Source: a virus (taxonomy: Duplodnaviria > Heunggongvirae > Uroviricota > Caudoviricetes). Taken from it: a DNA stretch of 64,000 nucleotides. Made by a program: the position numbers and the translations under genes. The stretch lies in IMG/VR virus record IMGVR_UViG_3300031993_000018, positions 89,614 to 153,613 of that record. The stretch is one strand, 5' to 3'. This document shows, in pieces, positions 664-60,888 of the stretch; the first letter of the stretch is position 1, and each line of letters opens with the position of its first letter. Below the pieces are notes generated by a model. The model did not search any database and was not told the origin of the DNA. It saw only the letters and a list, made by a program, of their open reading frames with translations.

Positions 664-744
664 AAGAGAGGATAAAACATCCTCTCTTTTGTACATAAAT
701 ATTTTATAAAAACTTTGTTATATTTAATATACAAAATAAGTTAT

Positions 745-2234: not shown

Positions 2235-2615
2235 ATGAAAAGATTTACAAACAGTGAGATTACATTTGGTGAGGAGATCCAAATCAATGACTGGCAGGTC
2301 AGACTTCCTGTCATTGTTGATGGTAAGGAGATGTCTGTTGATGATGTGAACTTCATCATAGAACCTCATTATGTGTCAGGAGAGACATTGTATCAACCTC
2401 ATATATTCATTGATGAAAGACTCCGGGACCAAGGTCTGGGATATGGAATCTACAAGGCATTCATACATGAGTTCGGGAACATATACAGTTCCCACTGGTG
2501 TAGGACAAACAACAAGGAAATTATATCCATCTTCAACAAACTTGCACTGGAAGATGACATAGTGGTGGAGAAAAACAACAAATATTATTTCGCATATCTA
2601 AAGGGTTCAAGATAA
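2235..2615 (+). CDS. Hypothetical protein
   Basis: 126 aa ORF immediately after a terminator; followed by a hairpin plus TTTTGTTATATTTAA cassette. Confidence 0.45.
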   Translation: MKRFTNSEITFGEEIQINDWQVRLPVIVDGKEMSVDDVNFIIEPHYVSGETLYQPHIFIDERLRDQGLGYGIYKAFIHEFGNIYSSHWCRTNNKEIISIFNKLALEDDIVVEKNNKYYFAYLKGSR

Positions 2616-2661
2616 TTTGAACCTTTTTTGTTATATTTAATCTGGATTATTTAATTGAATT

Positions 2662-3792
2662 ATGCAGATTATAGACAATGTACAACTTGACTTCAGTGAT
2701 GTTCTCATTAAACCCAGGAGGTCAAGTATTGATTCGAGAAGTAAGGTAGATATTACCAGGGAGTACAAATTCAAATGGTGTCCATATAAAATCACAGGTA
2801 CTGGTATTATGCAGGCCAATATGGGAACCATAGGTAACTTTAAAGTGAGTGAGAAACTGTTGGAGAATGGTATGTTTGCTTGCCTTCACAAATATCATGA
2901 TACTGACAAACTGATTGATTTCTACAAGAAACTCATCCACAAAGGTGACGGAAGTATGAGAAGATGTCTCCTTGCAATAGGATTGAGAGATAATGGTATT
3001 GAGAAACTGAGGGAAATAAACAAGGCAACCGGTGAACAGATTGGTGTGAAGTTTGATGTTCCCAATGGATATATTCCCCAGGTAAAGGAAAGAGTCATTG
3101 AACTCAGGAAGGAGTTTCCAGATATGTTCATTATGGTTGGTAATGTGGTTACTGGTGATATCACAGAAGACCTGATTCTGTCAGGTGCAGACTGTGTTGC
3201 AGTAGGTATCGGTAATGGTGCCCAGTGTCTCACAAGAAGACAGACAGGTTGCGGAAGACCACAGTTCTCCGCTGTCGTAGAGTGTGCAGATGCAGCTCAC
3301 CAGGTCGGAGGTATGGTTTGTTCTGATGGTGGTATCACCTGTCCTGGAGATTTGGGTAAGGCATTTGGTGCCGGTGCGGATTTCATTATGATAGGAAGTC
3401 TGTTTGCAGGAACTGATGAGGCAGATGGTGAGACTGTTGAGAAGTATGTCTTCAATGGTGAGTATGACAAAATATTATATAATCCTGGTTATGTGTTTGA
3501 TCCCCATCTTGATAAGAAACAGTTCAAACAGTTCTATGGTATGAGTTCAACTCTGGCCCAGGAAAAGTTTGGTAATGGTAAACCCAGTTACCGTGCGAGT
3601 GAAGGTCGTGTAACTCTGATGCCTTATACAGGATCTGTTTGTGATGTGATTGAGGAACTCCTTGGAGGATTGAGGTCAACAATGACTTATATAGGTGCAT
3701 GGAAACTCAAGAATATTCCTAAACAGTGTGTGTTCTATAAGGTTCACAACCAACTGAACCAGACATATGAGAGATTTACAGTAGGTAAATAA
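2662..3792 (+). CDS. guaC: GMP reductase (IMPDH/GMPR family)
   Basis: N-terminal LDFSDVLIKPRRSS and the motif GADCVAVGIGNGAQCLTRRQTGCGRPQFSAVVECADAAH...SDGGI...GADFIMIGSLFAG match E. coli GuaC almost motif-for-motif, including the catalytic Cys loop. Confidence 0.85.
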   Translation: MQIIDNVQLDFSDVLIKPRRSSIDSRSKVDITREYKFKWCPYKITGTGIMQANMGTIGNFKVSEKLLENGMFACLHKYHDTDKLIDFYKKLIHKGDGSMRRCLLAIGLRDNGIEKLREINKATGEQIGVKFDVPNGYIPQVKERVIELRKEFPDMFIMVGNVVTGDITEDLILSGADCVAVGIGNGAQCLTRRQTGCGRPQFSAVVECADAAHQVGGMVCSDGGITCPGDLGKAFGAGADFIMIGSLFAGTDEADGETVEKYVFNGEYDKILYNPGYVFDPHLDKKQFKQFYGMSSTLAQEKFGNGKPSYRASEGRVTLMPYTGSVCDVIEELLGGLRSTMTYIGAWKLKNIPKQCVFYKVHNQLNQTYERFTVGK

Positions 3793-3830
3793 AAAAATGA
3801 GAGGTTGTTGCCTCTCATTTTTATTTTAAT
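3793..3830. terminator. Bidirectional intrinsic terminator between convergent genes
   Basis: aaaaaaaTGAGAGGttgttgCCTCTCAttttttatttt: a perfect 8-bp stem flanked by an A-run and a T-run. Confidence 0.6.
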
Positions 3831-4758
3831 CACCCCAGTATGTACCTGGTCTTGAACAATTAATTTCAACTTCATATTTATATCCTTTTGAGAAGTTGTC
3901 ATCATTGACATATCTCATAACAGTCTTGACATCATAAGGACTCATTGAGATGAACTCATCATATTTGACATAAGGTGCATCCATATAATCATCAGATTTC
4001 AGTGCATCTGCAATTTCCTTTGGAACATCCTGGGCAGCAATCTCCTCATAGTTGTCAGGATTTGCCTCAACATCTGCCTTGAGTGCCTCAACCCTTGCAT
4101 CATATGCTTCTTTCTTTGCCTTCTCTGCGGCAGTCCTGGCTTCCTCCTCTTCTTTTTCTATTCTTCTCTTTTCCTCCTCTTCCCTCTGCTTTTCAAGATA
4201 TTTGTCATAAAGTTCATCCACTTCCTTTGTAACTTCCTCAAGACCTGATGTCCTGATTTTGATGAACATTTCCAGAAAACCTATTGCATCATTGTTACTG
4301 CTGTAATATGATTTTGAATCTATTGTTGTGAAATAGAAGTATTTGTTTTCCTCATTCCAAAGAACATAATAGAGGTCACCCTTGTTTGTGAAGCATGATT
4401 TAACTTTCTCAATATTGGGTTCTGACAATACTTCAAGGAGTCTGTCCACTTTACCTTCTGTACCGAATGTATGTGTGTCCAAATATGCCTTACTTGGTTT
4501 ATGAGAAATATAATCTCTACCTCCACATTCATATAATTTATCACATATTTCATCAGGAACAACAGCCTTGATTTCCTTATATGCAAAATTATTAAAAGTT
4601 TTTACTTTGAAAGATATGTTTCCCAGGAACTCATAATCCTTTGAAAGGAAACCATTCTTCATCTGTGAATAACTCAGATTCCTGATGTTTCCATTTTCAA
4701 GTTCCTTTATTGAAATAGATTCCTTAAGAAAGTTGTAACTATTAAAGTTTGGTACCAT
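3826..4758 (-). CDS. Hypothetical protein with a central E/K/R-rich coiled coil (minus-strand moron)
   Basis: 310 aa ORF on the opposite strand, lying between a bidirectional terminator and a divergent promoter region. Contains an EKQREEEEKRRIEKEEEEARTAAEKAKKEA segment. Confidence 0.55.
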   Translation of the reverse strand: MVPNFNSYNFLKESISIKELENGNIRNLSYSQMKNGFLSKDYEFLGNISFKVKTFNNFAYKEIKAVVPDEICDKLYECGGRDYISHKPSKAYLDTHTFGTEGKVDRLLEVLSEPNIEKVKSCFTNKGDLYYVLWNEENKYFYFTTIDSKSYYSSNNDAIGFLEMFIKIRTSGLEEVTKEVDELYDKYLEKQREEEEKRRIEKEEEEARTAAEKAKKEAYDARVEALKADVEANPDNYEEIAAQDVPKEIADALKSDDYMDAPYVKYDEFISMSPYDVKTVMRYVNDDNFSKGYKYEVEINCSRPGTYWGD

Positions 4759-4788
4759 ATTTTTGTTATATTTATAATTGAACTTATA

Positions 4789-5889
4789 ATGTATTTATGT
4801 ATGAATAAGAATTTTTTAGAAGATTTTTTGAAGACTTACAGACCTTCAGGGTTTGAACAGGAAGGTGCTGAAGTGTTTGTCAGTAATGCCTGTGGACTCA
4901 AAGGAGTCAAGAAAGAGTTTATTGATAAGATGTGGAATGCATGTGTGAGTGTGGGTAGTGAAAAGGAGGATGCACTGAAAATCCTCATCTCCGGTCACTC
5001 TGATCAGAACTGTCTCATTGTGACTGAAATCACAAAGAATGGTTTCCTCAAGTATGCAACCCAGGGTGGATTCTCTCCAAGGACAGTAATTGATTCAGAC
5101 CTCTTTGTCATCACAAACAATGATGGTGTGAAGAAACTTATCCCCTGCTTCTGTAGTTATAAAGCAATACATATAGAAAAACCGGATGACAGAAAGAAAT
5201 GTCCAGAACATAAGGATCTCTATCTTGATTTGGGATGTACATCCAGGGAACAGGTTGAGAAACTCGGTGTACATATAGGTGACCTGGTTGTATTCAACAA
5301 CAGTGGTCTGAATATGGACTTTGGTCCTGATGGCAACTACATTGTAGGTTCAGGTCTTGATGATGGTGTTGCTTGCGGAATCGTTTATGATGTCCTGAAG
5401 AAACTTGATGAGAATGAACTCAAGGAGATGAACATCAGGGTATATGGTGCATGCATCACATCAGAGGAAACTGGTGCCAGGGGTGTTGGTCCTGTAGTAA
5501 GAAAGGTTCAGCCACATATCTCCATAGATATTGATGTATGTCATGACTGCACCAAGGAGATTGGTGAGGATGAAGGCCGGATTGCAAAGATGGGTGATGG
5601 TGCTGTCCTGAACTATGGTCCTGACAAATACAGACCTCTCAATGAAGACTTGAGACAGATTGCAAAGGATTATGACATCAAGTTGCAACTCATTGCCGGC
5701 AAGGCAGGAGGTACAAACACCAACAACATCCAGATGATGTCAGACAACTGTGCCACAACCCTGTTGAGTATCCCTTGCAGATATATGCACAGCGGAACAC
5801 ATGAGATGGTCAATAAGGATGACATTGATGGTTGTGGTCAGCTCATATACAAGTTCATCAACAAGGTAGATCCAAAGAAGTATGTATAA
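4789..5889 (+). CDS. M42-family metallopeptidase (glutamyl aminopeptidase / cellulase-M like)
   Basis: Segments GHSDQNCLIVTEITKNGFLKY, GSGLDDGVACGIV, ITSEETGARG and RYMHSGTHEM line up with the conserved metal-ligand blocks of M42/FrvX peptidases. Confidence 0.6.
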   Translation: MYLCMNKNFLEDFLKTYRPSGFEQEGAEVFVSNACGLKGVKKEFIDKMWNACVSVGSEKEDALKILISGHSDQNCLIVTEITKNGFLKYATQGGFSPRTVIDSDLFVITNNDGVKKLIPCFCSYKAIHIEKPDDRKKCPEHKDLYLDLGCTSREQVEKLGVHIGDLVVFNNSGLNMDFGPDGNYIVGSGLDDGVACGIVYDVLKKLDENELKEMNIRVYGACITSEETGARGVGPVVRKVQPHISIDIDVCHDCTKEIGEDEGRIAKMGDGAVLNYGPDKYRPLNEDLRQIAKDYDIKLQLIAGKAGGTNTNNIQMMSDNCATTLLSIPCRYMHSGTHEMVNKDDIDGCGQLIYKFINKVDPKKYV

Positions 5890-6752: not shown

Positions 6753-6794
6753 TTGAAGAAAGAGTCAGGAAAACCTGACTCTTTTGTTATTTTT

Positions 6795-7388
6795 ATGTTG
6801 TCAAAAAATGTATTTATTATGAGCAGACCAAACAAATGTATCAAGGATGAGAATGGAAAGGATCAGTGGATCTCCCGCAGTACTGTGGTAATACCTATTG
6901 TATTCAAGATAGACAATGAAACCGGAGACATCTACACTATTGTGGAACAGAGAGGTAATGCAGTAACCCATCCTGGTGAATGGTGTTGTCCCTGTGGATT
7001 TATAGACTGGGATGAGACTCTTGAAGAGGCCTGTCAGAGGGAAGTGAGGGAAGAGACCGGAATCATCCTCAATCAGGAAAACATCCATTTTATGTATGTC
7101 TATAGTGACCCCAAGAGTACCAATCAGACTGTTGACTTGTGGTATATGTGCTGGACAGATGCAGACATAGACACATCAAAGATTGAAACAAAGGAAGAGG
7201 TTATGGATGTAAGGTGGCTGAAGGTCGGTAAGTTATACCGGGGTAGTACATTGTTCATCTTCAACACATCAATCAAAAACTGTTATGGTACCTGGGCATT
7301 TAAGACACATGCCGGCAGAGTCATAGAGATGTTGAAAACAATTGTCAAAGATGCCAAGAATGGTAGAGTGGTTGAAGTAAATGATTAA
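6795..7388 (+). CDS. NUDIX hydrolase
   Basis: Nudix box [23 protein letters not shown] (Gx5Ex7REUxEExGU). The ORF-track start at 6753 is a TTG lying inside terminator hairpin 6761..6783, so the ATG at 6795 (or 6819) is preferred. Confidence 0.75.
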
Positions 7389-9494: not shown

Positions 9495-9522
9495 ATTATT
9501 TTTCAATTTACATAAATAACGT

Positions 9523-9963
9523 ATGGGAAAATATAGAATGTACAGCTTGGTGCTGAGGCAACTAAACCCAATTCAAAAAGGTGTTCAATCAGCACACTCA
9601 ATCGTCGAATACGCAAAGAAATTCTACAAATCCACTGAATATATACAGTGGGTTAATGTGGATAAGACCATTATCATACTTGATGGTGGAACATATCCTG
9701 AATTGAAAGAATGTAGGGACACCCTCATCGATTTAGGTGTACCTTATATGGCTTTCTATGAAGAAGATCTTGGTGATGTGATGACTTCAATATCATTCCT
9801 GGTTGAAGACAAGGTCTGGGATTCGAAGTCATATCCTTCTTATGAAGATGAACTTGATGAGAATTCATCTGAATCCGAAAATCCGGTATGGCTCATTATG
9901 ATGGGTGGAAAACGGAATCTTGAATTAAGGAAATTCCTGATGAGTAAAAGACTTTCAGCATAA
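9523..9963 (+). CDS. Hypothetical protein, possibly peptidyl-tRNA hydrolase PTH2-like
   Basis: N-terminal YSLVLRQLNPIQKGVQSAHSIVEY resembles the PTH2 core K..vvR.DL.M..GK.aaQ..HA. Weak, from memory only. Confidence 0.3.
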   Translation: MGKYRMYSLVLRQLNPIQKGVQSAHSIVEYAKKFYKSTEYIQWVNVDKTIIILDGGTYPELKECRDTLIDLGVPYMAFYEEDLGDVMTSISFLVEDKVWDSKSYPSYEDELDENSSESENPVWLIMMGGKRNLELRKFLMSKRLSA

Positions 9964-10022
9964 AAGTGATGAACAAAAGTTCATCACTTTTTTGTTATAT
10001 TTACTTTATAATACTTAAGGTT

Positions 10023-10337
10023 ATGACTGATAATGAACTGTTCCACTATATCTGTATGTATGTGACCGATGATGTCTTCACATTTGAGGAAAGGAGGAGT
10101 ATGAGTGTGGAGGATTTCCACCAGTATGTAAGAGAACACTTCATACCCATACCCAAATCAGAACTCATCACAGGTGTAATTTATGATGGATATTGCCGGA
10201 ACACCAACAGGGCAACATGGGATGGGGAGGAATTTCATTATAAAAGACATAAGTTCGGTACCACATTTGATGACACAATCAACCATTATGAAGATGATGA
10301 AGGTTATGATGTGTTTGTACCCATAAAGGAGATTTGA
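10023..10337 (+). CDS. Hypothetical protein
   Basis: ORF 9966..10337; ATG at 10023 lies after the terminator/TTTTGTTATATTTAC cassette. Confidence 0.4.
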   Translation: MTDNELFHYICMYVTDDVFTFEERRSMSVEDFHQYVREHFIPIPKSELITGVIYDGYCRNTNRATWDGEEFHYKRHKFGTTFDDTINHYEDDEGYDVFVPIKEI

Positions 10338-11429: not shown

Positions 11430-11724
11430 AATATGTGAAAAATATCATGAAAAGTGGAGATATACTCTCCACTTTTGTTATTTTTATAATGAAAAATTAT
11501 TGAGTTATGAAAATATATGGAATTAAATGCATCCAGTCTGAATGGGATGGATGCAATGGTTGTGAAACAGACAGTTATTTGTTGGACTATTTTTTCAGCA
11601 CAAGAGAAAAAGCAGAAGAAAATCTTTTAGAAGATGTACATAGTGCTGGGTACAGAAAAAGGTATGAGGTTGCTGAAATAGACCTTGACAGATATACTAC
11701 AAGACCTGAATACCGCAGAAAGAA

Positions 11725-14823: not shown

Positions 14824-15373
14824 TTCCAAATCCCTACATTACCAACTTTGTCTGGAAGGTGCCAAGTGGTTACATAGGAAAAAGAATGACTACAAGAAGT
14901 GCCCAAATAAAGACTGTCACTTGAAGTTCTGCCGGAACTGTGAGACTTACGATTACGTTGCGGTGGAACTCTGTGTATATGGTGCAGAGAACACTGATGT
15001 ATGGGGTTACTCATGTGGAAGTCATACCAGTGCAGTCATTGAAGTAAAGACATCTCATTCCGATTTTCTGGCAGATCAGAAGAAATGGTGGAGAAGTAAG
15101 GAAGCAGAGAATGGTGGGTTCCAGGCTGGACAAAGGAGATGGTATCTATGTCCGGAAGGTGTCATCAAACCTGATGAACTTCCCGAGGGTTGGGGACTTC
15201 TTTACTGGGATGGCAAGAAGGTATATCATGTGGTGAATCCTGTTATGACAGACAGGAAAACATCCAGGGCAGATATGATAATGCTGACATCTATATTGAG
15301 GCGAGAGAATTTCCCCAAGAAGATTTACAACTACAGATACACTAATCCAAATTTCCAAAATGATTTGGAATAA
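14804..15373 (+). CDS. Hypothetical protein, possible PD-(D/E)xK nuclease fold
   Basis: An ordered VAVEL ... TDVWGY ... AVIEVKTS pattern resembles the E / D / ExK motif series. Confidence 0.3.
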   Translation: MLKTMSDSKSLHYQLCLEGAKWLHRKKNDYKKCPNKDCHLKFCRNCETYDYVAVELCVYGAENTDVWGYSCGSHTSAVIEVKTSHSDFLADQKKWWRSKEAENGGFQAGQRRWYLCPEGVIKPDELPEGWGLLYWDGKKVYHVVNPVMTDRKTSRADMIMLTSILRRENFPKKIYNYRYTNPNFQNDLE

Positions 15374-15506
15374 CAAGAAAAAATCATTATCTTTGTAATG
15401 GAGAAATAATGTTTAAGAATATGTGGATAGTATTATTACTGTTGATTGGATTGATAGCTTGCCTTTGGAAAGGTGAAGGTAGTAAGTAATTTTAAAAAAT
15501 ATAATT

Positions 15507-22373: not shown

Positions 22374-22406
22374 ATTTGTTGGTTCAGATTTTTTTATTAT
22401 CTTTGT
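22374..22406 (+). promoter_or_regulatory. Bacteroidetes sigma-AB type promoter (TTTG, then 19 nt, then TATCTTTG)
   Basis: aaaaaaTTTGttggttcagatttttttatTATCTTTGtaatag, upstream of the gene at 22427. Confidence 0.55.
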
Positions 22407-27860: not shown

Positions 27861-28388
27861 ATGAATGATTTTAAGAAAATAGTTTTCCTGGATATAGATG
27901 GTGTATTGGCATCCATCCAATTCTTGTGTGATCATCCCAAGTCATCAGGAATTGATCCGGAAAAGTGTAAACTCCTCAACACCCTTTCTGAAATAGGTGC
28001 TGAAATTGTCATATCCTCTTCCTGGGGACACGACAATGGCAGAACTGAAAAGACATTGAGACAATGTGGGTTGACCCTTCCAATCATAGGTTACACCCAA
28101 CATTTTTCCCAGGACTGGATATGTAGGGGTAATGAAATTGAGAAGTGGTTGACAGAGATGTATGGTGGTATGGGTACCAAGTTTGGTTACGATTGCGATA
28201 CGGGTGAACCATACTACAGGGAACACTTTAGTGATAATGATGTTGATTATGAGTATGTTATCTTTGATGATGACACTGATTTCCTGCTTGGACAAAAAGA
28301 CAACTTCATCAAAATAGATGAAAAGACAGGTCTGACAGAAGAGGACATCAACAAAGCAATTAAGATACTTACAAGAAGTGGCGAATAA
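27861..28388 (+). CDS. HAD-superfamily phosphatase (HAD_SAK / polynucleotide-phosphatase-like)
   Basis: Motif I VFLDIDGVL followed by a short ISSSW block, as in the HAD domains of Swiss-army-knife RNA repair proteins and PNKP phosphatases. Confidence 0.5.
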   Translation: MNDFKKIVFLDIDGVLASIQFLCDHPKSSGIDPEKCKLLNTLSEIGAEIVISSSWGHDNGRTEKTLRQCGLTLPIIGYTQHFSQDWICRGNEIEKWLTEMYGGMGTKFGYDCDTGEPYYREHFSDNDVDYEYVIFDDDTDFLLGQKDNFIKIDEKTGLTEEDINKAIKILTRSGE

Positions 28389-28401
28389 ATTTCGCCATTT
28401 T

Positions 28402-28433
28402 TTTTTTGTTATTTCAAAAAAATATATTATCTT
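28402..28433 (+). promoter_or_regulatory. Sigma-AB type promoter (TTTG, then 19 nt, then TATCTTTG)
   Basis: TTTGttatttcaaaaaaatatatTATCTTTGtaatag, preceded by hairpin terminator GGCGAAtaaatTTCGCC. Confidence 0.55.
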
Positions 28434-28457
28434 TGTAATAGATATAAACAAACAGAT

Positions 28458-31741: not shown

Positions 31742-32793
31742 TATGGAAGTAATTATAGATGGAGTAAAATATCTTCCTTCCAATGTGGCACAACCCACAA
31801 TGGAGGAACTGAAACAGTATCTGGAGGAACTGAAAGGTAAAAGTCATCTGGTTGCTGAACAGAAAGTCCCTGCTGAATATGTAAGAGATGATGACAGAGG
31901 CAGACCCTTTGACAAGGCATATGACAAGAGAGACTGTTATGAAAGGGGATATGACTATGCCTTATTGGAGATTTTATACTGGGTAAATGAACACACTAAT
32001 AATAAGTAATATGGATAGAGAAAAATTATTGACAGTATTCAATTTGAGTAACAGTGCATTGATATTCACCTCATTTGGTGTATTCAATATGGCAATAAAC
32101 AACCACAAGGGTGCATTCATCCTGTTCGGTATTGCCCTGGTGGAACTCCTGGCGATGTCCATCACACTCGGAATTGGAGTGTTTGGAAAGAATAAATGAA
32201 CATCCAATGGAAGGAAAGAAGTTAGGCAGGAAGGATAAGGAAATGCTCAAGTCGGCACTTGGTGCCATCCACTTCGCAGATGACAGGTATTACTTTGATG
32301 GTGGAGAATACACATCCATTGATGTAATATCCTGACTGACTGATCTGGTCCTGAATAAATGACTTAATTTGGTATATTTATATAAAGGTAAGATATGACA
32401 AAAGAAGAATTCAATAATGAGATATCAGTCGGTGATGTAGTAAGAATCATTGGAACTGACAAAGAGGAAGACTGTGTGGTTCAACACAAGACAGAATATG
32501 CAGTCAATCTCCTGACTGTTGAATTAGGTCCGAGCGGTCTTCCGCGCGGAAGTTTCTATCGCACATATGATGAGATAATTTCAAAAGTAAAATAATATGG
32601 GTAATAAAAACAAATTAAAGGGTGAAGGTACTGCCACAATCATACAGACCAAACAAAACCTGGGTCTCTTCTTTGAGAATGGCAGATTCTACACCATGTA
32701 CTCCAATAGTTCATATGGTCCCATACTTGAAAAGGAGGATGTGACCGATGAAATTGCAAAGGTACTGAAACCATATTTCACATCTAATCCGGA

Positions 32794-35502: not shown

Positions 35503-35916
35503 ATGAGTATCTGGGGTGATATGCTTGACCGGGGAACCGGTGAAAAGATAAAGAAGGAGGATCTCATTGCCGATCCACTGGGGACACTTGAAAAAAGTGT
35601 TATAGTGTATATAGGACCTGTGGACAGAACAGTGTTTCCCACAATGCCGGCGGAAAAAGGACAACTGTACTATGTAAAGGATGAGGTAACCATTGAAGGT
35701 GTAACCTTTCCAGCAGGTTCAGGTATAGTCTATGATGGAACCAAGTGGGTAAATGTAGGTGGTTACACTGTTGAAAGGGTAGATGCCAATATCGATTACC
35801 TTAAACCTGATTCTGGTTTGGAATATATCCCTGAGCCGCCGCGAATTACAATAGCAGCATATGACGATGACGGAGTATATGTACCAAAGTCAATAGGATG
35901 GAAAAATAATTTTTGA
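35503..35916 (+). CDS. MSIWGDMLD-leader family member 4
   Basis: MSIWGDMLDRGTGEKIKKEDLIADP...; 137 aa. Confidence 0.6.
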   Translation: MSIWGDMLDRGTGEKIKKEDLIADPLGTLEKSVIVYIGPVDRTVFPTMPAEKGQLYYVKDEVTIEGVTFPAGSGIVYDGTKWVNVGGYTVERVDANIDYLKPDSGLEYIPEPPRITIAAYDDDGVYVPKSIGWKNNF

Positions 35917-35945
35917 TTAATCAAGAAAAATCATTATATTTGTAA
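35916..35945 (+). promoter_or_regulatory. Sigma-AB type promoter (TTTG, then 19 nt, then TATATTTG)
   Basis: TTTGattaatcaagaaaaatcatTATATTTGtaag, upstream of the nucleotidyltransferase gene. Confidence 0.5.
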
Positions 35946-40577: not shown

Positions 40578-40668
40578 GTTGTATGTGTTTATTATAAAAT
40601 ATTTATGTGAATATTTGGATATTTCAAAAAAACATATTATATTTGTAGTAAGAATAAAAATATAAACT

Positions 40669-41336: not shown

Positions 41337-41368
41337 TTTGGTAGTATCGATTTTTTGTTTTATATTTG
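41337..41368 (+). promoter_or_regulatory. Sigma-AB type promoter, extended conserved form (AAAATATTTGGTRGT...TATMTTTGTATCAGAAAC)
   Basis: aaaaatatTTGgtagtatcgattttttgtttTATATTTGtatcagaaacc. The same extended motif occurs at 50791..50840, 54341..54390 and 60851..60900. Confidence 0.55.
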
Positions 41369-42543: not shown

Positions 42544-42607
42544 TTAATAGAAGTACATTTGAAGAAGGTTGTCTGTGAAGATAACCTTTTTTGTTATATT
42601 TACATAT

Positions 42608-43471
42608 ATGATTATACCCCCAATTAAAATACAAGGAAAGAAGACCAAACTGGTTCCGAGAATAATGGAGATTGCCCAGGACCAACTGGATACACATCCG
42701 GAGATTGACACCTGGGTTGAACCCTTCCTGGGATCTGGAGTGGTGGCCTTCAACTGTCCGGACAGAATAAAGAATGTCATAGTCAATGACATCAACCCCC
42801 ATATCATCAATCTATACAAACAGATTGCATGTGGATTTATCACCCCCGAAATGGTGAAAACTGTATTCTCACAACACAATGATGCACTACTGAAAGGAGG
42901 ATATACATACTATAATAAAATCAAAGACAGATTCAATAATTATTTTGATCCTATGGATTTCCTCTTCCTTACCAGGACTGGATTCAATGGGGTGATGAGA
43001 TTCAATGGTTCAGGAAAATGGAATGTCCCATTCTGTAAACTCAACAACAGGTTGTCCACAAAAGTCATAGAAGACCTTTCCAGCTCCATAGAGGAACTTT
43101 CTCACCTCTTCCTGAGCAAGTCATTCACTTTCTATAACACTTCGTTTGAGAAGGTTTTAGAGGCCTCTCCTGCCAATTCAATTTTCTATTGTGATCCTCC
43201 TTATTATGGACTCCAGGTTCAGTACTTCAAAGGGTGGGAAAAGGAAGATGAAATAAGACTCAATGAAATGTTAAAGGATAAGGTGTTCATCTACTCAACC
43301 TGGCTTAATGATGGAAAGAAAGACAACCCTATGATAGATGAATACTGGAAAGACTTTGTGGTGGAGAAGATACCTCACAAATACAATGTGGCAGAGAAGT
43401 CCACAGAGAGAAACCAAGTGTTTGAGGGACTCATATACAGACCGGCGGAAAACAAGTTTTCATTGTTCTAA
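42608..43471 (+). CDS. Dam-class (D12) N6-adenine DNA methyltransferase
   Basis: N-terminal KIQGKKTKLVPRI (compare Dam KWAGGKRQLLPEL), motif I EPFLGSGVVAFN, catalytic FYCDPPYYG. The ORF-track start at 42569 lies inside the terminator/promoter cassette, so the ATG at 42608 is preferred. Confidence 0.7.
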   Translation: MIIPPIKIQGKKTKLVPRIMEIAQDQLDTHPEIDTWVEPFLGSGVVAFNCPDRIKNVIVNDINPHIINLYKQIACGFITPEMVKTVFSQHNDALLKGGYTYYNKIKDRFNNYFDPMDFLFLTRTGFNGVMRFNGSGKWNVPFCKLNNRLSTKVIEDLSSSIEELSHLFLSKSFTFYNTSFEKVLEASPANSIFYCDPPYYGLQVQYFKGWEKEDEIRLNEMLKDKVFIYSTWLNDGKKDNPMIDEYWKDFVVEKIPHKYNVAEKSTERNQVFEGLIYRPAENKFSLF

Positions 43472-43593
43472 ACCTTGCGGTCACGACCTTACGAAAGATG
43501 AAGAAACAAAAAATCTTCATCTTTTTTTTCATTTTTATTTGGTAGTTTCAAAAAAAACCTTTATATTTGTAGTGTAAATCAAGTAACAAAGTT

Positions 43594-48368: not shown

Positions 48369-48473
48369 CTATAAGTAAAACTTGAAAAAAGACCATCCGA
48401 AAGGGTGGTCTTTTTTTGTTATATTTTTTATAAAATGACATAAATATCTATATAGTGTTTATAAGTTTTTCAA

Positions 48474-48746
48474 ATGGCAGACGATATTGAAACCATATCT
48501 TACATAAACCCTGGTGACGGACAGAATCATCCCATTGATGCTGTTACAGTTGGAGGTAAAACCATACCGGGTGCAACATCTCTCCTTCCATCAGTGTCTA
48601 ATTCAGACAATGGAAAGGTGTTGAGAGTTGTCAATGGACAGTGGGTCATTGTTACTCCTGCCATCATCTACACAGGTGATGGTGAGCCATCCGACAGTGA
48701 AGGAAATGATGGAGACATCTACATACAAACAAATATAGAGATCTAA
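48474..48746 (+). CDS. Hypothetical small protein, probably tail-fibre associated
   Basis: 90 aa, Gly/Asp-rich, directly upstream of the fibre gene. Confidence 0.4.
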   Translation: MADDIETISYINPGDGQNHPIDAVTVGGKTIPGATSLLPSVSNSDNGKVLRVVNGQWVIVTPAIIYTGDGEPSDSEGNDGDIYIQTNIEI

Positions 48747-50719: not shown

Positions 50720-50858
50720 AACGGTTGCGACAACGAAGCACGAATCACCAATTCCAAAAGGAGTTGGTGATTTTTTTGTTAAAAAGTACGAAAATATTTG
50801 GAGGTATCAAATATTTCTTGTATATTCGTGACAGAAACCAATAAGAAAGAGGGTATAT

Positions 50859-51357: not shown

Positions 51358-52197
51358 ATGGTTATAAATTACACCAACCTTAATGAGAACATCAACATCT
51401 ATTTCAAGGAGATCCGCAACTTCGCATCCCTGACAAGAGAAGATGAGGTAAGACTGTTCTCAAGAATCAAGACAGGTGACAAGTCAGCACAGGCTGAAAT
51501 CTTCAACAGGATGGCCAAGCTGGCGGTCAACATTGCCAAGACATACACAGGTGATGCAGACCTTTTGGAAGATCTCATCCAGGAGGCAAACATTGGTATC
51601 CTTACCGCCATTGACAAGTTTGACCTCAATTCCGGTTTCAGATTTTCATCATATGCCCGTTACTGGATGAAGGCCGCCATTTCCAAGTATCTTGATGAAA
51701 TGGGTGTGGTACGTCACTGCAATCCCCATCTTGTTGACCTGGCCAACAAAATCCGTGAGAAGTTCTACAAGGAGAACCAAAGGGATATCACCAGTGTGGA
51801 ACTGATGGATATGTTGGAGGATGCAGGTGAGGTGGTTGATGACATCAAGTCAATCACCAGCATCACCAATGTGAGGATTGATCTTCCTTATGATTGTGAT
51901 GAGTCCGGAAAGCCAAAGGGCGAATATGGAGACTTCGCAGACCGTACTGCCTGTGACAATGGGTTTGTAGAAAAGGAAAGAGCCGAGGAACTTTCAGAAG
52001 ACATCAGACGAAGACTCTCAAGACTCACTCCGAGGGAGCAGCAGTTGGTCCTGTTGATGTACGGTTTCGTCACCGGAGAAGAAATGGGTTATGACGCTGT
52101 TACAGAAAGGTGGAATGAAGGTAAGCCCGAGAAGGAACAGCTCACACAGGAGAGAGTCCGTCAGATCATCAAGGGTGCACTCAAAAAGATGAAGTAA
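51358..52197 (+). CDS. Sigma-70 family RNA polymerase sigma factor
   Basis: Region 2 LLEDLIQEANIGILTAIDKFDLNSGFRFSSYARYWMKAAI (compare DLIQEGNIGLMKAVDKFD...F.TYA.WWIRQAI); region 4 LTPREQQLVLLMYGF...ERVRQIIKGALKKM. Confidence 0.7.
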   Translation: MVINYTNLNENINIYFKEIRNFASLTREDEVRLFSRIKTGDKSAQAEIFNRMAKLAVNIAKTYTGDADLLEDLIQEANIGILTAIDKFDLNSGFRFSSYARYWMKAAISKYLDEMGVVRHCNPHLVDLANKIREKFYKENQRDITSVELMDMLEDAGEVVDDIKSITSITNVRIDLPYDCDESGKPKGEYGDFADRTACDNGFVEKERAEELSEDIRRRLSRLTPREQQLVLLMYGFVTGEEMGYDAVTERWNEGKPEKEQLTQERVRQIIKGALKKMK

Positions 52198-54346: not shown

Positions 54347-54378
54347 TTTGGTGGTTCCGAAAATATATTGTATCTTTA
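54347..54378 (+). promoter_or_regulatory. Sigma-AB type promoter, extended conserved form
   Basis: gaaatatTTGgtggttccgaaaatatattgTATCTTTAcatcagaaac. Confidence 0.5.
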
Positions 54379-55115: not shown

Positions 55116-55147
55116 TTTGGAATATCCGAAAAGATCCATTATATTTG
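55116..55147 (+). promoter_or_regulatory. Sigma-AB type promoter (TTTG, then 20 nt, then TATATTTG)
   Basis: aataaTTTGgaatatccgaaaagatccatTATATTTGtaatg. Confidence 0.5.
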
Positions 55148-58364: not shown

Positions 58365-58457
58365 AAACAGTCCTCCGGGCCAAAATTCCGGAGGATTTTG
58401 TTATATTTAATATGTGAAACGGACATAAATAAAGTATATAACTAAATCACTGTTAAT

Positions 58458-58892
58458 ATGAGTATTTGGGATGATATGCTTGATAAGGGTGTCGGTGAAA
58501 AGGAGGCTCTGGAAGACAGGGCTCAGTTCAGGGATGACATCACTCCTGAAGATTTGAATGAGATGCTCCTTTCCGGAATTGTCCGTTTCCAATACAGAAA
58601 GAAGGCAAAGAAAGGTCAGCCGGAGGACAGTGGTGAGGTCAGGACTGCCTGGGGTACCAGGAAGTCAGAAGTGATCACCAAGATTCCTCACGGTGGTGAA
58701 TGTCCCCCCAAGAAAGTCGGTTATTCTCTCTACTTTGATATGGAGAAATCCGATTGGAGGGTGTTCTGGTCAGGAAGACTGATTGGAGTATGGGACAAAG
58801 TTTACACTGAACCTGAATTCACCAGGCTGTATGCCAAACTGAAGGCAGAAGAGGCCAAGGAGAAAAAGGAAGAGGTGATACCTGAAGAATAA
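58458..58892 (+). CDS. MSIWGDMLD-leader family member 5 (leader fused to the 55501-type domain)
   Basis: MSIWDDMLDKGVGEKEALED..., then a domain homologous to 55501..55755, then a K/E-rich tail. Confidence 0.6.
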   Translation: MSIWDDMLDKGVGEKEALEDRAQFRDDITPEDLNEMLLSGIVRFQYRKKAKKGQPEDSGEVRTAWGTRKSEVITKIPHGGECPPKKVGYSLYFDMEKSDWRVFWSGRLIGVWDKVYTEPEFTRLYAKLKAEEAKEKKEEVIPEE

Positions 58893-59182: not shown

Positions 59183-59271
59183 TCAGGAAAGAGATGAAAA
59201 AATTGACCTCCGGGATGAATTTCCTGGAGGTTTTTTGTTATATTTAATGTGATAATAATAAAGTATTTAGT

Positions 59272-59883
59272 ATGGATAAACTTAGTTATGCATTAGGTGT
59301 CAGCGTTGGTCAGAACCTGATAACACAGTTCGGAATCAAGGATTTGAATTTCGAGGAATTCACAGAGGGATTGAAAGTAATGTTCGGTAAGGTAGAAAAC
59401 AAGATGTCTATTGATGACATCAACAATACCATAAATGAACACATAAAGAAGATCCATGATGAGAAGAAAAAAGAACAGAAGAAGATCAATGAGAATAACC
59501 TGAAGGAAGGAAAGGCATATCTTACAGAGAATGCCGAGAAGGATGATGTTACTACAACCAAGTCAGGACTCCAGATGAAGGTACTTAAGGCAGGACCTGG
59601 ATACATCTCTCCGGGACCACATTCAAGAGTAAGAGTCCACTATGAAGGCAAACTCATTGATGGAACAGTGTTTGATTCATCATACCAGAGAGGTGAACCT
59701 GTTGAGTTTGGCCTGGATCAGGTGATTCCTGGTTGGACAGAAGGTGTACAACTGATGAAGGAGGGAGATGTATTTGAATTCACCATCCCATCTGAATTGG
59801 GTTATGGTGAGGTAGGAGTTCCAGGTCATATTCCTGGTAATAGTGTCCTGATCTTCAAGGTGGAACTTATAAAGATATTGTAA
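59272..59883 (+). CDS. FKBP-type peptidyl-prolyl cis-trans isomerase
   Basis: GLQMKVLKAGPG...VHYEGKLIDGTVFDSSYQRGEPVEFGLDQVIPGWTEGVQLMKEGDVFEFTIPSELGYGEVGVPGHIPGNSVLIFKVELIKI is a canonical FKBP domain. Confidence 0.75.
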   Translation: MDKLSYALGVSVGQNLITQFGIKDLNFEEFTEGLKVMFGKVENKMSIDDINNTINEHIKKIHDEKKKEQKKINENNLKEGKAYLTENAEKDDVTTTKSGLQMKVLKAGPGYISPGPHSRVRVHYEGKLIDGTVFDSSYQRGEPVEFGLDQVIPGWTEGVQLMKEGDVFEFTIPSELGYGEVGVPGHIPGNSVLIFKVELIKIL

Positions 59884-60856: not shown

Positions 60857-60888
60857 TTTGGTGGTTTAAAATAAAACCGTTATCTTTG
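60857..60888 (+). promoter_or_regulatory. Sigma-AB type promoter, extended conserved form
   Basis: aaaatatTTGgtggtttaaaataaaaccgtTATCTTTGtatcagaaagg. Confidence 0.5.

Follow-up and report, generated by a model that had tools for sequence, protein, structure and literature searches.

What is a short, nearly unchanging sequence doing directly behind an apparent transcription terminator, and why does the same arrangement recur between so many genes of one phage? The question is raised by an intergenic site at positions 9962–10008 of a 64,000-nt stretch of Caudoviricetes DNA (IMG/VR record IMGVR_UViG_3300031993_000018, positions 89,614–153,613; hereafter the window). On the plus strand, a hairpin (9962–9991, ΔG −16.1 kcal/mol) and T-run are followed by a 12-nt motif of the TTGTTATATTTA type (9992–10003), with a predicted transcription start at A 10008. 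A first-pass annotation of this DNA had suggested that the motif is more than a terminator needs and may represent a second promoter class, and the comparative and positional evidence presented here supports both ideas. The element is a real and conserved terminator–promoter cassette. In the reading that we favor and consider likely, an intrinsic terminator has a T-tract that merges into a −33-independent, TG-extended promoter serving middle-type DNA-metabolism genes.

The window contains 11 matches to TTGTTATATTTA with no more than one mismatch, against 0.75 expected, and this number was reached in none of 100 dinucleotide-preserving shuffles. All 11 are on the plus strand, as is nearly every gene of the window, and all are intergenic in our own map of its open reading frames (ORFs). 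At nine of the 11 sites the motif ends 5–25 nt before a start codon. The motif is also present in related phages, from which its absence had been named beforehand as grounds for abandoning the idea: in relatives linked to the window by their helicase (218 kb; 73–90% protein identity) the gene strand has 62 copies and the opposite strand has 10.

The motif closely resembles the −7 box of Bacteroidota promoters. In the numbering of Baez et al., that box reads T−12 A−11 H H T−8 T−7 T−6 G−5, with transcription starting 4–5 nt beyond (PMC6847099). On this scale the motif is T−16 T−15 G−14 T−13 T−12 A−11 T−10 H−9 T−8 T−7 T−6 A−5, and its general form is TTTG-T-TAnnTTTA. Base composition was determined for 64 non-identical sites, taken from both the window and its relatives and selected for a final A or T. 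Only position −9 varies (A 48%, C 20%, T 31%, G 0%). As in the host box, positions T−12, A−11, T−8, T−7 and T−6 are nearly invariant, G is avoided at −10/−9 and all window sites read TA..TTT. The departure from the host box is at −5, which is A in 92% and T in 8% of the sites; G is found there in only five of 70 plus-strand sites preceded by TTG. All 11 window sites have TGnTA, placing a TG at −15/−14, one base ahead of the −10-type element, and T occupies −17 in 100% of sites, though it was not a selection criterion. At the predicted start, 5 nt downstream of the motif, T(−1) is found in 70% and a purine(+1) in 86% of the 64 sites. The predicted leaders are 0–19 nt long.

Bacteroidota sigma-A promoters have TTTG at −33 and TAHHTTTG at −7 (PMC6847099; PMC7366714), and the G at −5 is nearly invariant among those characterized (PMC6847099). 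Canonical promoters of the form TTTGG-N16-20-TAHHTTTG are found in the window as well, in six exact copies against 0.28 expected, or about 10 when variants are included. Their extended consensus is aaaaATTTGG-N-TTATcTTTGTA, the upstream part of which matches the −33 box AAAnnTTTGG reported for Segatella copri, and they are located at 15364–15395, 22375–22405, 28405–28435, 35912–35942, 40614–40645, 41337–41368, 43538–43569, 50797–50828, 54347–54378, 55116–55147 and 60857–60888, ahead of runs of small unknown ORFs and of the operon that encodes a sigma factor. Their start signature is similar to that of the motif class, with T(−1) at 79% and a purine(+1) at 100%.

How distinct are the two classes? 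We compared all sites in the window and relatives that share the core TTATnTTT. Fifty-nine have TTG upstream, A−5 and no −33 element; 26 have no TG, G−5 and a −33 TTTG; five combine the upstream TTG with G−5; and the combination of A−5 with a −33 element and no TG does not occur (Fisher p ~3e-15, a value inflated by the non-independence of orthologous sites). Viewed another way, a TTTG lies ~17–21 nt upstream of the −7 box at one of 60 TTG/A sites versus 26 of 36 no-TG/G sites, and the −33 space of the motif class is taken up by hairpins of variable sequence. The differences at −33, at the TG and at −5 are linked, and the two promoter classes are mutually exclusive. The motif class shares with Bacteroidota sigma-A promoters T−12, A−11, the lack of G at −9, T−8, T−7 and T−6, the distance to a purine start and leaders without a Shine–Dalgarno sequence, but differs in having A−5, no −33 element and an invariant TTTG from −17 to −14.

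The hairpins behave as a second, independent component. Eight window copies of the motif directly adjoin a strong hairpin and T-run (11–16 pairs, ΔG −11 to −21 kcal/mol, 4–8 T), and at all eight a stable, GC-containing stem-loop with its T-tract lies 3′ of a co-directional gene, as expected of an intrinsic terminator; conversely, the motif is found directly 3′ of eight of the ~16 plus-strand terminators counted in the window. The remaining three of the 11 copies (715, 4763 and 32369) have no abutting hairpin. Among the 64 sites, 69% have, within the preceding 40 nt, a hairpin with ΔG ≤ −8, versus 15% of random places and 0% of canonical promoters in the same register, leaving ~31% of motif sites hairpin-free. 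Pairing is conserved where sequence is not. For the cassette ahead of the NUDIX–helicase operon, the 12 orthologous hairpins comprise at least five different stems, every one of them perfectly paired, with 2–5 Watson–Crick pair types at each stem position, i.e. compensatory change. This comparison used per-sequence folds anchored on the stem; RNAalifold on a plain ungapped MAFFT alignment of the orthologous hairpins recovered no structure because the stems are out of register. Similarly, five relatives (L003, L005 [GC 50%], L007, L239 and L240) carry an invariant motif ahead of the FKBP orthologue, with unrelated stems. The two modules can be separated: the divergent site 4763 has the motif without a hairpin, and some terminators have no motif.

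Based on this anatomy, we suggest the following sequence of events. The GC-containing hairpin and T-tract would end the upstream co-directional transcript in a Rho-independent manner, while the last bases of that tract (TTTTG) would lead, in fixed register, into a promoter with a −7 box of Bacteroidota type that has TG at the 'extended −10' position, A rather than G at −5 and a variable hairpin in the −33 space. Transcription would then begin at the purine located 5 nt past the last A of the motif, restarting expression of DNA-metabolism and modification genes with a very short leader or none. The window genes led by the motif include a GMP reductase family member, an M42 peptidase, a NUDIX and Dda-like helicase operon, a thymidine kinase operon, Dam, WYL_2 and FKBP; in relatives, a C5-methyltransferase, a clamp-loader-like ATPase and a LicD-like protein are also found in this position. 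This inventory fits a temporal split in which host-type promoters would form the early class and motif promoters a delayed-early or middle class. Sharing of the T-tract is not confined to motif cassettes. At the terminator beginning at 28373 (28373–28435), the T-run and the following G double as the TTTG of a canonical promoter's −33 element, and re-use of terminator T-tracts is therefore a more general feature.

Four points weigh against this interpretation: (i) many of the sites counted in relatives are orthologous, and the statistics therefore overstate their independence; (ii) given the nearly invariant G−5 of host promoters, sites with A−5 may be poor promoters for host sigma-A; (iii) Bacteroidales sigma-A has N and G at the positions expected to read the TG, which vary among the phage sigmas, so that the 'extended −10' read-out is a geometric analogy and the contact putative; and (iv) at 48416 and 58398 the motif and the start codon are 46–48 nt apart and separated by a third spacer motif, CATAAATA, and three relatives (L003, L005 and L007) keep the CATAAATA-type motif alone. 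Both copies may be redundant, or may have arisen recently.

Canonical Bacteroidota promoters, together with the scarcity of Shine–Dalgarno sequences (a core at only 12 of 128 genes, the leaders being A-rich), indicate that the host is very probably a Prevotella-like member of the Bacteroidota. A megablast comparison of 5 kb of the window with INPHARED (50,697 deposited phage records) returned no DNA-level relative, and IMG/VR scanned with the sigma factor as a single protein gave no match; an alignment-based scan of this database with the sigma found two family contigs. Syntenic contigs of the family include IMGVR_UViG_3300021387_000661 (344,746 bp) and Ga0247609_10000001 / IMGVR_UViG_3300028888_000043 (411,604 bp), and the sigma and the Dda-like helicase both belong to large families in rumen and gut metagenomes. 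The window apparently derives from an uncultured member of a family of huge rumen and gut phages. An exact 14-mer scan of IMG/VR gave mostly single chance matches; among the matches listed, the informative ones were pieces of family contigs and an unrelated viral contig, L052, with four co-oriented motif copies. We found no description of the motif in any phage context in the literature searched.

Two readings of the motif by RNA polymerase survive comparably well. In the first, which we hold with slightly less than even confidence, host sigma-A, alone or with a phage modification or co-factor, would use the motif as a −33-independent promoter, with the TTTG/TG and the T-rich −14 to −20 segment offsetting the missing −33 element, and the phage sigma would serve another class such as CATAAATA. 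Six of the seven defined −7 box positions are indeed kept, the avoidance of G at −9 is that of the host, and the motif and canonical classes share their start signature. Precedent for a weak −33 element comes from Flavobacterium johnsoniae (F. johnsoniae), in which AT-rich motifs at −18 and −28 are clearer than the −33 box (PMC6847099); the T-tract could be a −18 element of this kind. What this reading does not readily accommodate is the base at −5, where the near-invariant G of the host is replaced by A at most motif sites, nor the lack of classical TG-reading residues in host sigma-A. The three-feature exclusivity of the classes also suggests two recognition modes rather than one.

The second, which we regard as possible and hold only tentatively, assigns the motif to the phage-encoded sigma-70-family factor proposed as its reader in the first-pass annotation. 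The gene (51358..52197, plus strand) encodes a protein of 279 amino acids spanning regions 1.2–4.2, and its identification is borne out by Pfam matches to regions 1.2, 2 and 4. Made early from a host-type promoter, this factor would redirect host core polymerase to the −33-less motif, much as gp28 of SPO1 does at middle promoters. In the window, L003 and L005, a canonical-type promoter is located ahead of the sigma operon, in which small genes come before the sigma, and L007 shows an upstream −33-type part; the sigma could therefore precede the motif-class genes, in keeping with a cascade, and the genes downstream of the motif are of middle type. In Escherichia coli, sigma region 1.2 touches the base two positions past the −10 element, equivalent to −5 here. 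The phage sigma differs from the host in this region (NIYFKEIR versus DKYLxEIG in host sigma-A), providing a possible counterpart to the systematic G to A change at −5. The phylogenetic distribution agrees: all relatives with a sigma of at least 52% identity carry the motif, and crAss001, a Bacteroides phage with no sigma, has no strict copy in 100 kb.

Other observations argue the opposite. The TAHHTTT core of the motif is that of the host sigma-A box, despite only 28–30% identity between the phage sigma and Bacteroidales/Prevotella sigma-A and a different region 2.4. In E. coli sigma70, H455 and E458 read the TG. The equivalent region 3.0 positions are N and G in the host and H/V/R/R and D/K/W/D in four phage sigmas, although the TG is invariant in the phages concerned; any recognition of the TG would have to be achieved differently. 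The region 4.2 helix is near-canonical (LTQERVRQI), suggesting that an upstream element is expected, yet motif sites have none. In all members of the phage sigma family compared (51358–52197, P0017, P0061 and P0095), an insertion of 13–25 residues is found just before this recognition helix. Finally, CATAAATA is an equally plausible target for the sigma, and the four co-oriented copies in L052 lie on a contig unrelated to the family.

The cassettes may have an additional role as recombination joints that shuffle gene cassettes, which would be compatible with the favored terminator–promoter reading but seems unlikely to us. Precedent is provided by the promoter-early stem-loop (PeSL) cassettes of the T4-type phages RB49 and phi1, in which a stem-loop terminator is combined with a strong sigma70 early promoter and for which recombination and mini-circles have been shown (Arbiol et al. 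2010, PMC2839356). In our data, the cassette at 58369–58409 is missing from the orthologous place in L003, L005 and L007, and its stem (CCTCCGGG...CCGGAGG) resembles that of its neighbor at 59205–59246, likely as the result of one cassette duplication. Relatives carry ~600 bp of extra sequence between the cassette and the homologue of the gene at 10023, and the segment that separates the GMP reductase gene from the M42 peptidase gene is swapped beside cassettes, with a 310-aa gene in one version and an ORF-free region in the other. These hints must be set against the scant homology available, since only ~14–16 nt are common to the cassettes and the stems differ, and against the location of most cassettes at conserved junctions before conserved core genes rather than specifically beside ORFans. 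A combined scheme, in which host-type promoters drive early genes including the sigma, the sigma reads the cassettes and the cassettes double as PeSL-like joints, strikes us as doubtful when taken as a whole.

By analogy, PeSL is the closest known concept. Both are small intergenic composites of a promoter and a stem-loop that would end upstream transcription, restart the next gene and recur along a large phage genome. PeSLs have −35 and −10 boxes, an AT-rich upstream region and often GGGG...CCCC stem-loops, whose location in the promoter varies. In the present cassettes the hairpin invariably lies upstream, and the promoter is of the Bacteroidota −7 type with a TG, lacks an upstream box and is not of the host-consensus early class; signs of recombination are limited to adjacent indels and the one likely cassette duplication. 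Extended −10 (TGn) promoters of the sigma70 family provide a second parallel, with a TG one base ahead of a −10-type element and a dispensable upstream hexamer. The present case differs in that the TG-reading residues are absent from Bacteroidales sigma-A and unconserved in the phage sigmas, and any contact would be made differently. Phage sigma cascades (gp28 and the middle promoters of SPO1; gp36 of phiEco32) likewise couple an early sigma-70-family factor to a distinct promoter class before DNA-metabolism genes. Unlike SPO1 middle promoters, the motif class nearly copies the host −10-type box, and any link between sigma and motif is putative here.

Can the motif be separated from the terminators it usually follows? 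In four relatives (L018, L026, L028 and L031), a minus-strand copy stands back-to-back with the plus-strand copy ahead of the M42 peptidase gene. The minus-strand copy heads a conserved region of ~320 nt that has no ORF and is closed by a hairpin and T-run terminator (L031:1418–1770, L026:2811–3135, L018:75–427 and L028:520–860, all on the minus strand and flanked by the genes for GMP reductase and the M42 peptidase). Of 70 predicted pairs in this region, 19 show compensatory change, making it a candidate structured RNA; Rfam has no family for it or for the motif region. In the window, the 310-aa gene (3826–4758) stands in its place. The back-to-back arrangement is explained if the motif is a start signal; an RNA-processing or antitermination site fails to account for it. 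These functions had also been raised in the first-pass annotation, and they are weakened by the presence of the motif where no co-directional transcript is expected from upstream, at 4763 and at the minus-strand copies of the relatives.

We consider it very improbable that the motif acts only in RNA or as a protein site (RNA processing, antitermination, operator or terminator enhancer), despite its position directly 3′ of terminators, and hence in read-through RNA, and despite a perfect inverted repeat, TAAATATAACAA-N3-TTGTTAT, in four relatives that could bind a dimeric protein, because ~31% of sites have no hairpin, terminators adjoining other promoter types (2194, 28373 and 50742) have no motif, and the −7 box match, the complete avoidance of G at −9 and the T/purine start signature would be left unexplained. 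Three further identities were rejected. TTGTTA is not a −35 box: no conserved −10 element follows it at 16–18 nt, and the A-rich stretch 13 nt beyond it is the region of translation initiation. A T4-type late promoter does not apply, as the motif reads TATATTTA on the coding strand rather than TATAAATA at −10, and CATAAATA is separate from it. An N4-type hairpin promoter is incompatible with the hairpin-free sites and the unconserved stems and loops.

Transcription programs of Bacteroidota phages are almost unmapped, and contigs of this family reach 345–412 kb. A single genome with two sequence-defined promoter classes that differ at −33, −15/−14 and −5, and with a candidate sigma encoded nearby, makes the relationship between sigma and promoter testable. 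If the combined cascade were true, it would provide the first defined promoter specificity of a phage sigma in Bacteroidota; if the motif is instead an ordinary host-read promoter, it would be a tidy and unsurprising case of phage regulatory economy. For annotation of the family, start codons called inside cassettes are wrong and operon boundaries can be read from the sequence, and the ~45-nt terminator–promoter parts could serve in Bacteroides or Prevotella engineering.

The individual cassettes of the window, all on the plus strand, are as follows. The cassette at 2600..2644 (hairpin 2600–2627, ΔG −11.4; motif 2628–2639; predicted start ~2644) precedes an IMPDH/GMP reductase family gene (2662–3792, plus strand) and has orthologues in L012, L017, L025, L026, L031 and L032. 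That at 6758..6800 (hairpin 6758–6785, ΔG −17.1; predicted start ~6800) has the variant motif TTATTTTTA (site 6758–6795), with TTGTTATTTTTA at 6784–6795, and leads the NUDIX gene and then the Dda-like helicase operon. The site with which we began, 9962..10008, has orthologous cassettes 3′ of homologues of the gene at 9523 in L010, L012, L013, L017 and L032. A variant motif (11475–11486, TTGTTATTTTTA) is also found in the cassette at 11450..11491 (hairpin 11450–11476, ΔG −13.8; predicted start ~11491; gene at 11507). In the cassette at 42560..42608 (hairpin 42560–42593, ΔG −16.6; motif 42591–42602), the next gene is the Dam methyltransferase with its ATG at 42608. The Dam start codon is only 4–5 nt beyond the motif both here (42591–42610) and in L239 (3864–3882; ATG 4 nt after the motif), and the predicted transcription start coincides with or adjoins the A of ATG 42608; the Dam mRNA is therefore probably leaderless in both.

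The cassette at 48383..48432 (hairpin 48383–48418, ΔG −21.1; gene at 48474) has a variant motif ending in TTTT (48416–48427), 3′ of which CATAAATA is found at 48439–48446. The same order is seen at 58369..58414 (hairpin 58369–58397, ΔG −17.0; motif 58398–58409), where CATAAATA at 58424–58431 separates the motif from the WYL_2 gene at 58458. The last cassette, 59205..59251 (hairpin 59205–59232, ΔG −19.6; motif 59235–59246; predicted start G 59251), precedes the FKBP-type gene at 59272 (plus strand). These eight are as described in the first-pass annotation, which had listed two more sites that do not belong with them. At 664..700, the terminator hairpin (659–693) is followed by TTTTGTACATAAATA, with CATAAATA at 694–701, and the motif (715–726; site 715..731, gene at 745) comes 22 nt beyond the hairpin. 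At 50741..50790, the motif is not present; the terminator hairpin (50742–50773) is followed by TTTTTTTGTTAAAAAG and the canonical-type −33/−7 promoter TTTGG-N19-TATATTCG at 50797–50828 (whole site 50742..50833, plus strand). Two motif copies had been missed, both plus-strand and without an adjacent hairpin. One, 4763–4774 (site 4763..4779), is in a 30-nt divergent spacer between the minus-strand gene 3826–4758 and the M42 peptidase gene at 4789; the other is the variant TTGGTATATTTA at 32369–32380 (site 32369..32385), ahead of a gene at 32395. The warning that start codons are miscalled inside cassettes was well founded: the ORFs listed at 715, 6753, 9966 and 42569 begin there on TTG or GTG, and their true starts are likely 745, 6819, 10023 and 42608, respectively.

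The third spacer motif, CATAAATA, occurs in eight exact copies, all intergenic and co-oriented with the next gene. On the plus strand, apart from the copies at 694, 48439 and 58424 given above, this motif is found at 1007–1014, 1239–1246, 2223–2230 (as CGTAAATA) and 9511–9518, and on the minus strand at 4792–4799 and 40600–40607. L003, L005 and L007 retain it at places that lack the TTGTTATATTTA-type motif, and it precedes large minus-strand genes in L003 (~7082–7192). At two genes it is located 4 nt ahead of the start codon, and the mRNAs are possibly leaderless. CATAAATA may be a late-type promoter. A tRNA-Ser (GCT) gene at 1149–1237 is followed directly by the copy at 1239–1246.

Two minor observations concern the contigs of relatives. 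L014 and L034, two metagenome contigs independent of each other, each have their first base exactly 25 nt 5′ of a motif copy, at the hairpin, probably reflecting an assembly break at the inverted repeat. In L138, the 345 kb family contig, a long insert that starts CFVAGTLIQT and is intein-like in appearance seemingly splits a motif-led C5 DNA methyltransferase gene (5478 onward) past its SPC motif, whereas the homologue in L135 is uninterrupted.

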